Of a stretch of 64,000 nt of DNA, positions 961 through 59,198 are shown one piece after another. A program made the translations under genes and the position numbers. Position 1 is the stretch's first letter; the number at the start of each line of letters is the position of its first letter. Location of the stretch: the NCBI GenBank assembly GCA_037308085.1, contig CP147779.1:2560001-2624000 (forward strand), written 5' to 3'. The notes below the pieces were generated by a model. The model saw only the letters and a program-made list of their open reading frames with translations. It had not been told where the DNA came from and searched no databases. Source of the DNA: Promethearchaeati archaeon SRVP18_Atabeyarchaeia-1 (GTDB lineage Archaea > Asgardarchaeota > Atabeyarchaeia > Atabeyarchaeales > Atabeyarchaeaceae).

Positions 961-1509
961 CTACGCCTTGCCCTCTTCAGTAACTGGAAGCTCTCTGATG
1001 CACCTTATCTCAGTGACGCACGATTGCCCCCCCGATGTTCTGCACTGAATCTCTCTTCCAATTCCTTCGAATCCCCTGAGAGTAAGAACCTCGAGGAATA
1101 CTCCAGCTATTGAATTACAGTACTTTAGATCCTTGTACTCGGGTGCCAACGTCACTCCCCGGCACATGGGACAGTCCTTGTCCTCGAAGATAATTCGTTC
1201 TCCTTCTGCGTCATTTATGTAAGTGACTTTGTCGAACTCCTTGCCGAAATTGTACTTGTAGGCAAGGTTCAAGGTGTCCTTAAATTCCTTGAAGGAGGCT
1301 GCGTGTTTCGCAACGGAGTCATGGAATCTGGCAAGGAGTTTTGGTGCCATCGCTCTTCCTTTTGCCAGGATGTCTTCATTTGTCTTCGGCACGTTTCCAT
1401 CGTTGACTTGAAGCAGAAGCTCGACCAATGTTCCATACAGAGCCTGCAGTAAGGTCAGGTTAGTTTTCTCGGCCATGAACCTCCATGCGATTCTGCCCCT
1501 CATTCCCAA
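961..1509 (-). CDS. V4R (4-vinyl reductase)-domain protein
   Basis: DCPMC...YCNSIAG...EIQCRTSGGQSC pattern typical of V4R; true start may be MAEKT at ~1476. Confidence 0.75.
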   Translation of the reverse strand: MGMRGRIAWRFMAEKTNLTLLQALYGTLVELLLQVNDGNVPKTNEDILAKGRAMAPKLLARFHDSVAKHAASFKEFKDTLNLAYKYNFGKEFDKVTYINDAEGERIIFEDKDCPMCRGVTLAPEYKDLKYCNSIAGVFLEVLTLRGFEGIGREIQCRTSGGQSCVTEIRCIRELPVTEEGKA

Positions 1510-1518
1510 TTGAATTCT

Positions 1519-2274
1519 CTACCCCCTGATTATTTCTTTCAAATCTACTTTGCCTTGGTTCTTGTACTTGTTTGCGATCTGCAGGGCATCAAAGAAGGGA
1601 ACCCTAAGTCTCTTAGCGATATCATTCAGACTCAGTTTACCGTCAAACAGCTCGAGGAATTTCCGGTCCTTTTCCGGGCACCTCTCCAAGATCTTAAAGT
1701 CCGTCAAGACTGGAACCATGACTCGCTCAGTTAATTTGCCCTTGGCTGGTACCGACGCTGCCACCGGAGCAACTTGAGGCGCGTTGACTACACTCGCGGT
1801 CGGCTGAGGAGGAGGTGCTGGAGTCTCAGGCTCCTCAATTGTGTTTTCCGCAGGCAGAGGAGGGCTTGACTCAGTTTCAACTACTGCTTCCTTGGAAGCC
1901 TGCTCGCCACCTGGCTTCGCTTCCTCAAGCAGGATAAGCTCATCTAGAAGCTTTCCGAATTTGTCTCTCAGCGAGCTCATCTTAGTGAGTACGATTCCTA
2001 TTTTCTTGTCTGTTATAACTATTAAGATCGCTTTGTTGGAGACCCTTGAGGCTATGATCGTCTTTGAGGCATCCAATGCCAGGGACAAGTTGTCTCCCTG
2101 CCCCATCATAAGTAGGCTGTCGTAGAATGGCGAGATCTTGGCCATTGCAGTCTTGCTTAGATCAGTGTAGAGCACTCTGCCCGAAGTTGAGACCACAGCC
2201 ATTTCAAGGACCGTAGGTATACCTAGGGTCGTCAGTTCTTTTCTGATAGCTTCGGAAAGGCTAGCTAGGCTCAA
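1519..2274 (-). CDS. Roadblock/longin-like domain + Pro/Glu-rich linker + C-terminal winged helix
   Basis: N-terminal MAVVSTSGRVLYTDL...ILIVITDKKIGIVL resembles the roadblock/profilin fold; low-complexity linker; LELFDGKLSLNDIAKRL wHTH; likely TTG start at 2274 (track ORF begins 2388). Confidence 0.6.
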   Translation of the reverse strand: MSLASLSEAIRKELTTLGIPTVLEMAVVSTSGRVLYTDLSKTAMAKISPFYDSLLMMGQGDNLSLALDASKTIIASRVSNKAILIVITDKKIGIVLTKMSSLRDKFGKLLDELILLEEAKPGGEQASKEAVVETESSPPLPAENTIEEPETPAPPPQPTASVVNAPQVAPVAASVPAKGKLTERVMVPVLTDFKILERCPEKDRKFLELFDGKLSLNDIAKRLRVPFFDALQIANKYKNQGKVDLKEIIRG

Positions 2275-8866: not shown

Positions 8867-9094
8867 TTGAAGCACGTCGTCATAGAGAGGCTGGGACCTG
8901 AGGGACACTCGGCCCTAGAAACAGATATTGACAGTGCGATCATCCTATTGGCTGATGAGATTGCTCGCGGATGTGTGATCTACTGTAGGAACAACCAGCA
9001 ACAATTCAAAGACGAAGAAGACCTCAGATTGTTTGAAAACTCCGCCGAGGAACCTGTTCGGGTAATGGTGATACCACCTATAGTGGGTGGATAG
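8867..9094 (+). CDS. Divergent ubiquitin-like (beta-grasp) protein with C-terminal diglycine
   Basis: 75 aa ending VRVMVIPPIVGG-stop; beta-beta-alpha-beta-beta-like pattern; GAGGAG SD upstream of the TTG start. Confidence 0.7.
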   Translation: MKHVVIERLGPEGHSALETDIDSAIILLADEIARGCVIYCRNNQQQFKDEEDLRLFENSAEEPVRVMVIPPIVGG

Positions 9095-9935
9095 AAACGT
9101 GGTAGAGAACCCAACGCATGTTTGCGGCGTCCAAGCTGAGGCAAAAGCTCTCGCACTGCTTAAGGGCATTGTGGAAGAGAACAGTAGAGCGTTCAAGATG
9201 GATGGGAACCAGCTCACCGTGACTACCCAGAAGGGGAAAAGATACTTCATCGAAATTCGAACCGCGAAGGTCTACAATGAATCTGGAAAGTTCGTGTGTG
9301 TTAGTGTTCTCGCTCCTAACCTGCCAATTGCTGACCAAGTCATCGCCAAGTCGCTTCATCTTCTTTGTCACCCTGATTCCTTGTCGAACCTGGATCAAGA
9401 CTTGCTGTTCAAGCTTGCTTTTGCCGGCGTCGAGCCCCGCGTTGAATGGCCATGGATAAAATCCATTTCATATTCCACTCTGGGGGAGACTTTCTCGGAT
9501 CTGATTGGTGCTGACTTTGCCGTAAAAGAAATCAGGATTGGCGGCCTCTCAATAAGGTTGCAGATGTGGTACGTGAACTACAATAATAGATTCAGGTCAA
9601 TAAGATCCAAGCACATCAAGGGAAGCATGGGTGGGATAATCCTATGCAACGCCAACAGTGACCCTGAGAAGGTCGGCAATTGCCAGGCAAGCATCGATGA
9701 GCTGAGATCCTGTAACGGGGAAAACTTACCGATGGCCCTCGTGGGTCTATATGATAGTACTCAAATGGATTGCGGGAAGAGTGAATCGCTGAGGCTGGGC
9801 GAAGACGTAGCAAGACGCAACAGGATCCCGTTCTTCACTTGCTCCCTGGATCACCCCTCAATGACCCAGAAACCACTAACCTACATTGTGAAAAGGGTCT
9901 TAACAAGACACAAAGACGCAGAGACAAGAAGCTGA
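9087..9935 (+). CDS. Fusion of an unknown Cys-containing N-terminal domain and a degenerate Rab-like pseudo-GTPase
   Basis: C-terminal FKLAFAG...IGADFAVKEI...IRLQMW...RFRSIRSKHIKGSMGGII...LPMALVG...FFTCS follows the Rab scaffold but lacks GKS/T, DxxG and NKxD. Confidence 0.7.
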   Translation: MDRNVVENPTHVCGVQAEAKALALLKGIVEENSRAFKMDGNQLTVTTQKGKRYFIEIRTAKVYNESGKFVCVSVLAPNLPIADQVIAKSLHLLCHPDSLSNLDQDLLFKLAFAGVEPRVEWPWIKSISYSTLGETFSDLIGADFAVKEIRIGGLSIRLQMWYVNYNNRFRSIRSKHIKGSMGGIILCNANSDPEKVGNCQASIDELRSCNGENLPMALVGLYDSTQMDCGKSESLRLGEDVARRNRIPFFTCSLDHPSMTQKPLTYIVKRVLTRHKDAETRS

Positions 9936-9991
9936 TCTATGACAGTGAGTCTGATCAGAAACATGTTCTTCTGATCTCCCTAGATTGAACG

Positions 9992-10570
9992 GTGAAGAAG
10001 GCAATGAGTGAGAAGTTCGTCGTAGTATTGACGCGAACCACTGGTCTGCCCGATGATTATGCAGTTTCTGCATGCAAGATTCTGGAATCGAAACTTGGTC
10101 GGAGCTTTGTCTTCAAAGTCAATAATAAGGTGGTCATTCCACCTCAAGATGGCTACAAGGAGGAGAGGAAGCAGTACACCGCGGAAGCCTTTCTGAATCT
10201 AGCTGAGCGCTTGCAGACCGAAATGAATTCCTTTGCATCTATTATTCTGACTGATGTTGATATTTTCGCAAAGTTCACCAACTATATCTTTGGATTGGCA
10301 GACATGGTGCACAGAGTGGCAGTGGTCTCAAGTTGCAGAATACACCCTTCCTTCTGGGGTATGAAAGAAACCAGAGAGTTGTTTGACGAGCAGTGGGGAA
10401 AGGTCGTCACGCACGAGTTTGGGCACGGGCTTGGGATATCCCATTGTGAGAATTGGGATTGTGTAATGAAGTACAGTAACTCACCCACGGAGCTGCAGAG
10501 AAAAGGTAGAGAATTCTGCGGAAAATGCGCAAGGGAAGTTGAGCAGACAATCGCGAACTTACAGCGATGA
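9992..10570 (+). CDS. amzA: Archaemetzincin (peptidase M54)
   Basis: HEFGHGLGISHC-x4-CVM-x2-S...FCGKC: metzincin motif plus Cys4 Zn site. Confidence 0.9.
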   Translation: MKKAMSEKFVVVLTRTTGLPDDYAVSACKILESKLGRSFVFKVNNKVVIPPQDGYKEERKQYTAEAFLNLAERLQTEMNSFASIILTDVDIFAKFTNYIFGLADMVHRVAVVSSCRIHPSFWGMKETRELFDEQWGKVVTHEFGHGLGISHCENWDCVMKYSNSPTELQRKGREFCGKCAREVEQTIANLQR

Positions 10571-44033: not shown

Positions 44034-44288
44034 TCAACCCCCCGCCACTGGTAGAATCAAGGACACCTCTTGTCCGTCTTTGAGTATCGGTTCCCGCAAC
44101 TCTGCATTCTTCACCATTCTGCCATCGACAAAAACGCCTGCCTGCTTCAACCGGTCCTTTGCCTCTGGATGGAGCTTGAAGATACCGTCAAGGAGCTCCC
44201 TGACTGTCCCCCTCTCCAAGTCTACTGTGCGCTGTTGTTCCCCGATAACCAGCCTGGTAGCCCCAACGAATTTCACGGTTATTCTCAA
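44034..44288 (-). CDS. MoaD/ThiS-family sulfur carrier (SAMP)
   Basis: MRITVKFVG...VFVDG...LKDGQEVSLILPVAGG. Confidence 0.92.
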   Translation of the reverse strand: MRITVKFVGATRLVIGEQQRTVDLERGTVRELLDGIFKLHPEAKDRLKQAGVFVDGRMVKNAELREPILKDGQEVSLILPVAGG

Positions 44289-58664: not shown

Positions 58665-59198
58665 TTAGGCGTGCTTCACGAGTTTTTCGATCAGCATCCT
58701 AGCAACTTCCTTGAAGGCTTCGGGGACATTCTCTCCGGTCTTGGCGGAAGTCTCCATGAACTTTGCCCCTATCTTGCCTGCGAATTGTTCGCCTTCGTCC
58801 TTGCTTATTTTCCTTTCAAGGTCTATCTTGTTCCCGACTACGATGATTGGAAGGTCTCCGCTGACAAACTTTTTCACGTCGTTGACCCACACCTTGGCGC
58901 CCTTCAGGGTCTCCGCTCTAGTTACGTCGTAGACTACGAATGCCGCCTTGGCTCCCCCATAATACTTCTCTCTAACTCTGCTGAAAATCTCCTGCCCAGC
59001 AATATCCCATATCAACAAAGTGACGGCGTAGTCGTCGATTAGGTAGTCGTTTGACGTGATGTTCGCACCAAGGCTCGGGATATAGTTCTCCCTGAAAGAC
59101 GAACTTGTGTGCCTTGCGACTATGCTTGTCTTGCCAACGGCAGGATCACCTATAAACACAACCTTGAAGACGTGTTTAGCCCTGAGAATAGTTTCCAC
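58665..59198 (-). CDS. Rab-like small GTPase
   Basis: GDPAVGKTS (G1), WDIAGQE (G3), GNKID (G4), ETSAK (G5); no C-terminal prenylation motif. Confidence 0.95.
   Translation of the reverse strand: METILRAKHVFKVVFIGDPAVGKTSIVARHTSSSFRENYIPSLGANITSNDYLIDDYAVTLLIWDIAGQEIFSRVREKYYGGAKAAFVVYDVTRAETLKGAKVWVNDVKKFVSGDLPIIVVGNKIDLERKISKDEGEQFAGKIGAKFMETSAKTGENVPEAFKEVARMLIEKLVKHA

Follow-up and report, generated by a model that had tools for sequence, protein, structure and literature searches.

In the genome of Promethearchaeati archaeon SRVP18_Atabeyarchaeia-1, we analysed a 64,000-nucleotide stretch of DNA, referred to here as the window (contig CP147779.1, positions 2,560,001 to 2,624,000; G000:C1:2560001-2624000 of a closed 2.8-Mb genome), with a focus on two small genes, one for a ubiquitin-like protein (Ubl) and one for a partner that begins with a cysteine-containing (Cys) domain. 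The Ubl gene (8867-9094, + strand) encodes 75 amino acids (aa). A GGAGGAG box precedes the TTG start of its open reading frame (ORF), which closes with ..PPIVGG and TAG, leaving a free C-terminal Gly74-Gly75 (codons 9086-9091). The next ORF (9087-9935, + strand) encodes a 282-aa protein, in which residues 1-102 form the Cys domain (9087-9392, + strand; codon of Cys71 at 9297-9299) and residues 103-282 a Rab-derived pseudo-GTPase domain (9393-9935, + strand). From GTG 9087 this ORF overlaps the Ubl ORF by 8 nucleotides (nt), and an alternative in-frame GTG at 9099 would give a 4-nt spacer instead. Homologues are called with a 4-nt gap and 278-280 aa, in agreement with GTG 9099, which may be the true start. 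After a further 56 nt follows a 192-aa archaemetzincin of peptidase family M54 (9992-10570, + strand; Pfam Peptidase_M54 9.4e-22, NCBIfam archaemetzincin 1.5e-40) with an intact zinc motif, HEFGHGLGISH. MFS, radical SAM, GT2 and B12-radical SAM genes flank the locus on both sides. The original prediction, which was made from the letters alone, had described the ORFs, their overlap, the motif AKALALL..G..Y.I..FVC..LP.AD..AK.L.L in the 282-aa protein, the M54 gene and the 56-nt gap, and every one of these details was found in the sequence. It had also reported that no E1, E2 or JAB gene is adjacent, and none lies within ~5 kb of the locus.

Both protein families keep their length and motifs across five Asgard families, and the ORFs are therefore, to judge from their sequences, real genes rather than chance ORFs. 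Window DNA is contained in freshwater-sediment and wetland metagenomes. A 335-nt contig from a wetland metatranscriptome is 100% identical to positions 9210-9544; as evidence of expression it is weak, being too little for an operon claim or to exclude DNA carry-over.

The AlphaFold2 (AF2) model of the Ubl, based on an alignment of ten homologues, reached a predicted local distance difference test (pLDDT) score of 86.5 and has the order beta-beta-alpha-beta-beta-alpha-beta, which is a beta-grasp. Its best structural neighbours are PB1 domains, and both results agree with the fold that had been anticipated for the 75-aa protein. The Gly-Gly tail, whose conservation was likewise part of the proposal, is invariant in 10 close homologues (61-80% identity) and in 6 distant ones (20-24% identity), the latter from four other GTDB families and one further metagenome contig, which extends it over five GTDB families. 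G13 and H14 are also retained in the distant homologues, with H14 changed to Asp in one of them. The Ubl ORFs of family f12 (L013:30-287 (+), L017:382-639 (+)) continue for 11 residues past the Gly-Gly, Cys first (GG-C-P/S-I-H-F), an extension that appears precursor-like, in the pattern of modifier precursors. At the Gly-Cys junction of these forms, an N-to-S acyl shift is possible in principle.

We compared the Ubl with the ThiS/MoaD/SAMP proteins, which are E1 substrates. The Pfam ThiS profile (PF02597) does not match the Ubl at E <= 1, and the cut-off of the family hidden Markov model (HMM) is not reached. A whole-genome scan with PF02597 found five other genes and not the Ubl. One of the five is a canonical ThiS/MoaD-type SAMP ending in VAGG (window 44037-44276, - strand; Pfam ThiS), which the original prediction had correctly placed near 44034 and kept apart from the Ubl. 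Profile alignment of the Ubl with the five ThiS-family proteins (hhalign) gave 91.5% probability and P 8.8e-7, over the last 28 residues only, and the tail motif V-x-V-x-P-P-V-x-G-G is common to the Ubl and the ThiS/MoaD/SAMP proteins of the genome. In our reading, the Ubl is probably a divergent offshoot of the MoaD/ThiS/SAMP lineage. A UFM1/UFC1 reading of the locus was rejected, as the Pfam Ufm1 and UFC1 profiles match nothing there. Ufm1 homologues have been reported in Asgard archaea (PMC12962969). The Asgard structural-genomics papers contain such Ufm1 homologues and nothing that resembles the pair described here.

The Cys domain is predicted by AF2 to consist of a helix (10-31), four to five short strands (four of them within 36-64), Cys71 and a second helix (81-94). 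Only 45 of 1.84 billion representative proteins matched it when searched with its profile at E <= 0.001. Most of them are 170-270 aa long, carry the domain at the C-terminus, end in LP..D..LAKALTIAY.P..I.TL, and have another N-terminal region and no GTPase. Cys71 is retained in 37 of the 38 aligned domains, which bears out the expected conservation of the cysteine, and P80, D83, K88 and P96 are retained in at least 90%. Searches of Pfam, NCBIfam and PDB sequences returned no match to the domain beyond chance-level ones and a sub-threshold match to DUF7737. The chance-level matches (PAS, beta-propeller repeats, a proteasome subunit) were set aside, as were the large repeat proteins P0029, P0031 and P0035, in which the match covers a beta-hairpin segment only. 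ESM Atlas look-ups with the Cys-domain part and with P0045 gave no usable named match.

Several variants of the Cys-domain family were observed. A few members are short, and at least one of these is a frameshifted full-length gene. At L031:5380-6282 (+), the Cys-domain gene is frameshifted between the N-terminal region and the Cys domain, which probably makes the 93-aa "stand-alone" form P0040 a pseudogene or an artefact; the upstream Ubl is intact and ends in IIHPVSGG. P0030, a metagenomic protein of 280 aa, has two tandem Cys domains, the first of which lacks Cys at the aligned column. Genome G108 has two tandem copies of the Cys-domain gene behind a single Ubl gene (L017:647-1177 and 1258-1788 (+)).

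To follow the distribution of the pair, 400 Asgard genomes were scanned with the Cys-domain profile and with the Ubl profile. The former gave a strong match in nine genomes, and the latter in those nine and one more. In this tenth genome the Cys-domain gene is also present, adjoining the Ubl gene, which brings the carriers of both genes to 10/400 genomes in five GTDB families. In nine of the ten, the Ubl gene comes first and either adjoins or overlaps the Cys-domain gene; in G122 the two lie at the ends of different contigs. The same order is repeated on further metagenomic contigs and contigs of metagenome-assembled genomes, and we found one orphan Cys-domain paralogue without a Ubl. The two families thus co-occur, as the original prediction had proposed. 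Homologue carriers of the same GTDB phylum are labelled Helarchaeota or ASGARD in GenBank. No flanking gene is conserved across families, the flanks including PIN, LRR, PolX, OPT, homocitrate synthase, ferredoxin and integrase genes. Taken together, a MoaD-like Gly-Gly modifier and a dedicated Cys domain form a real and conserved two-gene module, rare and patchy in Asgard archaea and apparently undescribed in the literature.

The complex of the Ubl and the Cys-domain protein was predicted with alignments for both chains and with three controls. We scored it by the interaction prediction score from aligned errors (ipSAE), for which the mark had been calibrated on known cases (58 of 80 solved complexes and 2 of 110 mismatched pairs attain it). 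The pair reached 0.74, compared with 0.00 for the best control, the runs share at least 92% of contacts, and the pLDDT of the partner is at least 83. These models support binding of the Ubl to the Cys-domain protein. The predicted interface comprises residues 71-80, 83 and 86-95 and the first helix of the Cys domain, and residues 9-14, 37-46 and 67-75 of the Ubl. Residues 75, 74 and 73 of the Cys domain are listed in contact with Ubl residues 70/71, 71/72 and 72/73, respectively, as expected of an antiparallel tail. By extrapolation two steps beyond these contacts, Gly75 would reach Cys71. A Gly-Gly tail beside the cysteine of FVC had been foreseen; the tail indeed lies on the strand of the cysteine in the model, and the Gly75-Cys71 contact itself is an extrapolation.

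In the same model, L9, V37/Y39 and I69 of the Ubl rest on helix 81-94. In the closed E2~Ub conformation, the L8/I44/V70 patch of ubiquitin sits on the crossover helix of the E2, and the modelled packing appears to resemble this arrangement. The conserved residues fall in the interface for the Ubl (6 of 6, p 2e-4) and for the Cys domain (5 of 7, p 0.012), values that are not independent, the predictor having seen the alignments.

A tail inserted into a partner protein and overlapping genes are also the pattern of MoaD-MoaE, and the pair as modelled matches it. If the pair carries sulfur in the manner of MoaD-MoaE or ThiS, the Ubl would bear a thiocarboxylate at Gly75, and Cys71 would relay or accept sulfur, as a persulfide or acyl-disulfide, on behalf of a cofactor or thio-modification pathway. 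The Ubl tail, which has the motif of the MoaD/ThiS proteins of the genome, is consistent with this, as are the radical SAM or 4Fe-4S ferredoxin genes beside the pair in two families. We nevertheless regard a sulfur relay as improbable. No flanking gene recurs from family to family, a rhodanese, MoaE, ThiG or TtuA-like partner was not found, and no match links the Cys domain to a known sulfur-transfer family. Moreover, so rare and patchy a distribution is unusual for cofactor synthesis, and five ordinary ThiS-family genes are present in the genome in any case.

Residues 103-282 of the 282-aa protein have a G-domain fold and match the Ras HMM (PF00071); the Pfam match spans residues 134-271, from profile position 26 only. 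For comparison, six intact Rab-like GTPases were taken from this genome, which contains 18 Ras-family genes, and aligned with the region. One of the references lies in the window itself (58692-59165, - strand; Pfam Ras 1.5e-48). Compared with the intact paralogues, GxxxxGKT is replaced by GVEPRVEWPW, the switch I Thr by Leu, WDTGGQ by WYVNYN, NKxD by LYDS and SAK by CSL, and G1-G5 are lost in all 17 homologues too. The Rab-family switch and interswitch motifs IGADF, LQMW and RFRSI are retained. These alignments confirm the pseudo-GTPase that had been called earlier in the C-terminal half and show that it derives from Rab; nucleotide binding by it appears very unlikely because G1-G5 are all destroyed. 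A GTPase scaffold wired to the Cys domain had also been proposed. The fusion is present here, and it is confined to the window's own family; as a family feature it does not hold, since it is lineage-specific and most members have no GTPase.

How these parts work together can be put forward as a mechanism. The Ubl and the Cys-domain protein would be made together from translationally coupled genes, Gly75 would be adenylated by a ThiF-type E1 of the genome encoded elsewhere, and the Ubl would be passed to Cys71 as a thioester, with the Cys domain serving as a dedicated E2-like carrier. The pseudo-GTPase, which keeps Rab surface motifs, would probably serve as a platform for docking the charged module to its partners. 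Two ThiF-type E1 genes (G000:C1:2724108 and 332302) and two Prok-JAB genes lie elsewhere in the genome, which also has a eukaryote-type E2+E1 cluster. Activation by an E1 in trans, followed by transfer to Cys71, seems to us the most likely mechanism, and we propose it tentatively. The computed folds, conservation, co-occurrence, loss of G motifs and predicted interface support the original interpretation in part: the Ubl fold, the conservation of Gly-Gly and Cys, the linkage and the pseudo-GTPase stand, and the archaemetzincin and the GTPase as a family feature do not. From this we infer that the Cys domain may be a Ubl acceptor or ligase, that the Ubl may be activated by an E1 in trans and carried as a thioester, and that the pseudo-GTPase may have a targeting role.

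Several observations weigh against a carrier role of Cys71. The residue lies within a hydrophobic strand, F-V-C-V-S-V, and its contact with Gly75 is not itself among the listed pairs but extrapolated from them. None of the pair loci examined has an adjacent E1. An E1 with an extension was considered as a dedicated partner and rejected; it is present in 80/400 genomes, and the query used did not detect it in f15 and f17, two families that carry the pair. Similarity to E2 enzymes was not found either. Pfam scans of 17 and 38 Cys-domain members at E <= 10 gave no E2 family among the families shown, PDB profile searches with the Cys domain gave no E2 chain, and the 38-domain alignment contains no conserved His-Pro-Asn (HPN) motif. 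Alignment with 25 Asgard UBC domains (hhalign) reached 1.1% probability and P 0.048, with Cys on Cys and Pro on Pro. Structure searches of PDB, BFVD and the ESM Atlas with the full 282-aa model were filled by GTPases, the Cys domain not having been searched alone. Finally, DUF7737 keeps an equivalent Cys where no Ubl neighbours it, and the cysteine may therefore be structural. As for the extended E1 itself, it is a ThiF-type protein of 355 aa with a C-terminal extension of ~115 residues ending in ..TSGG (L001:1165-2232 (-), about G000:C1 2723772-2724839, outside the window).

The relation to DUF7737 (PF24879) was traced through profile matches. At E <= 10, 15 of the 38 Cys-domain members match it, within profile positions 18-63 where shown, and the best score of 18.3 bits (E 0.0024) is below the Pfam cut-off of 27 bits. 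Alignment of the Cys domain with four Asgard DUF7737 domains (hhalign) gave 22% probability and P 9.4e-4 over 40 columns, with the Cys aligned with LCIVP. These four domains belong to proteins of Asgard family f7, 379-586 aa long (L100:646-2328 (+), L101:3371-4510 (+), L099:3086-4837 (+), L102:940-2700 (-)), which carry the DUF7737 domain with its conserved LCIVP at the C-terminus. Two of the four have an N-terminal Pfam Ras domain with degenerate P-loop, DxxG and NKxD; the N-termini of the other two are similarly degenerate and have no Pfam Ras match. Their domain order, pseudo-GTPase then DUF7737, is the reverse of that in the window's 282-aa protein, and no Ubl gene lies beside them. By domain content, a DUF7737-like domain combined with a pseudo-GTPase is a recurrent Asgard architecture, and the conserved Cys may be older than the partnership with the Ubl. 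A word-index search with a DUF7737 region returned nothing, and no paper was found that mentions DUF7737 or Asgard pseudo-GTPases.

This architecture also fits a non-covalent complex. In such a regulatory or adaptor complex, a DUF7737-like module would work with small GTPases or pseudo-GTPases and the beta-grasp protein would be a stoichiometric subunit; the Cys would then have a structural place in the core, and the Gly-Gly tail would be only a strand for binding that descends from a MoaD-like ancestor. Ubiquitin-fold RBD and PB1 domains act in GTPase signalling, and PB1 domains are the nearest structures to the Ubl. The sub-threshold DUF7737 matches point the same way, as does the recurrence of the DUF7737-like and pseudo-GTPase fusion independently of a Ubl, and overlapping genes with a confident heterodimer model and no adjacent E1 would suit a stable complex. 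We consider this explanation somewhat doubtful. A purely non-covalent tail would need no invariant C-terminal Gly-Gly across 20-24% identity, and the residues after the Gly-Gly in some forms are left unexplained by it. In addition, the DUF7737 link is under the Pfam cut-off and rests partly on a generic beta-hairpin motif that also matches beta-propellers, and most Cys-domain members have no GTPase domain.

The original prediction had further counted the archaemetzincin as a possible component that processes or removes the Ubl, which would make a three-gene system. The three genes are co-oriented and close, their order is kept in close relatives, and the C-terminus of some Ubl homologues has to be trimmed. 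Within the window's family, however, synteny covers the whole stretch from the radical SAM gene to the B12-radical SAM gene, and the adjacency of M54 in relatives therefore carries no weight. M54 is a single-copy gene in this genome, and 71 of the 101 sampled Asgard genomes have a member of its family, compared with about 10/400 for the pair. In other families it stands in unrelated neighbourhoods, and it was not found near the pair in the four families f9, f12, f15 and f17, including f12, whose Ubl has the extension. Because of this distribution, a three-gene system is largely refuted, and we give it very little probability. We rejected the archaemetzincin as a module component; it is a widespread housekeeping gene linked to the pair within the window's family only.

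Other genes were observed beside the pair. Some copies adjoin a tyrosine integrase, or a PIN gene together with a 95-aa ORF (L090:1712-2602 (-), L077:10418-11174 (-)); these neighbours and the patchy distribution are hints of an accessory or mobile context. At two unrelated loci, a very basic CPxC protein of 93-98 aa with the motif ..GW.TY.RRIRYR.. follows the Cys-domain gene (L078:10014-10295 (+), L089:2650-2946 (+)). Pfam does not match this protein, which could act as a substrate or as a third partner. The genes that flank the pair in family f15 encode a conserved 384-aa protein without a Pfam match (L080:6072-7226 (+), L081:4708-5862 (-)) and an 85-aa 2x[4Fe-4S] ferredoxin (L081:2887-3147 (-)). 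One contig that carries the pair (L104, DATKTP010000094.1) is named "Candidatus Deferrimicrobium sp." in GenBank and falls in the Asgard GTDB phylum; probably the label is in error, or else the bin is mixed.

Related proteins were also sought outside Asgard archaea. PHROGs and PADLOC gave no meaningful match for four Ubls and six Cys-domain proteins, and a tblastn search of 50,697 phage records and a pattern scan of IMG/VR were negative. On these four negatives, a phage or defence origin was set aside. In the ESM Atlas, the nearest neighbours of the Ubl are unnamed Uroviricota and Thermoplasmatota clusters (feature score 0.90, template modelling score 0.66-0.73), and those of the Cys domain are unnamed bacterial and Uroviricota clusters (0.82-0.84). 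They echo a statement in the original prediction that similar pairs occur in bacteria, phages and Thermoplasmata, and are only a lead. The statement was left unconfirmed, as HMMER, tblastn, PHROGs and PADLOC were empty there.

On a wider reading, the pair would be an Asgard-specific minimal Ubl conjugation module, in which the carrier is an unrecognised E2-like or convergent Cys domain repeatedly joined to Rab/Ras pseudo-GTPases; we think this unlikely. In a bolder variant, the forms with a Cys-led extension after Gly-Gly would activate themselves by an N-to-S acyl shift, without an E1. If such a module is real, the archaea most closely related to eukaryotes would have Ubl transfer physically tied to recognition surfaces of the small-GTPase type. 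In archaeal SAMP systems an E1 is understood to suffice, and eukaryote-like E1/E2/E3 cascades are encoded in operons of Asgard archaea and Caldiarchaeum. A third kind of module, in which a MoaD-like modifier has a small Cys domain of its own and the operon contains no E1, would then add a step, intermediate or parallel, to the evolution of ubiquitin-type signalling. If the Cys is structural, the finding shrinks to a new heterodimer of a beta-grasp protein and its partner. The pair is small and tractable for biochemistry (75 + about 100 residues), and the recurrent fusion of this domain superfamily to dead Ras/Rab domains in Asgard archaea touches on the reuse of GTPase scaffolds before the rise of eukaryotes.

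Among known systems, the SAMP/MoaD/ThiS proteins (PF02597, with a UbaA-type E1) share with the Ubl a small beta-grasp and a free C-terminal Gly-Gly after V-x-V-x-P-P-V, and ThiF-type E1 genes are present in this genome. In contrast to them, the Ubl is not recognised by PF02597, has its own conserved G-H-[STE] hairpin, has no adjacent E1, and comes obligately with a Cys domain, a partner absent from SAMP systems. To our knowledge, no E2 is required for SAMPylation in Haloferax. The phage-defence Ubl operons (Bil, Bub, CBASS Cap2/Cap3) are likewise compact, combine a Ubl with a Cys-bearing partner and have a patchy accessory distribution, which the pair, with some copies beside an integrase or PIN toxin gene, resembles. 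Unlike them, the pair has archaeal hosts, its operon contains neither an E1 nor a peptidase gene, and PADLOC and PHROGs do not match it.

DUF7737 is similar to the Cys domain in length, in its order of helix, beta-meander, Cys in a hydrophobic strand and C-terminal helix, and in its recurrent fusion to pseudo-GTPases. It differs by scores under the Pfam cut-off, the lack of a Ubl neighbour, and a C-terminal motif ..TLA.DD.I.D.VLL.QI in place of LP..D..LAKALTIAY.P..I.TL. Compared with Rab GTPases and eukaryotic pseudo-GTPases, the domain described here has G1-G5 destroyed and is fused behind a Cys domain. The E2/UBC proteins (including UFC1, ATG10 and Prok-E2) differ from the Cys domain, which has no significant sequence or profile similarity to them, no HPN and no helices after the second helix. 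In logic they are alike: both are small domains with one conserved Cys between a beta-meander and a helix, and in the predicted complex the Ubl tail would lie on the Cys segment, with the hydrophobic patch on the next helix.

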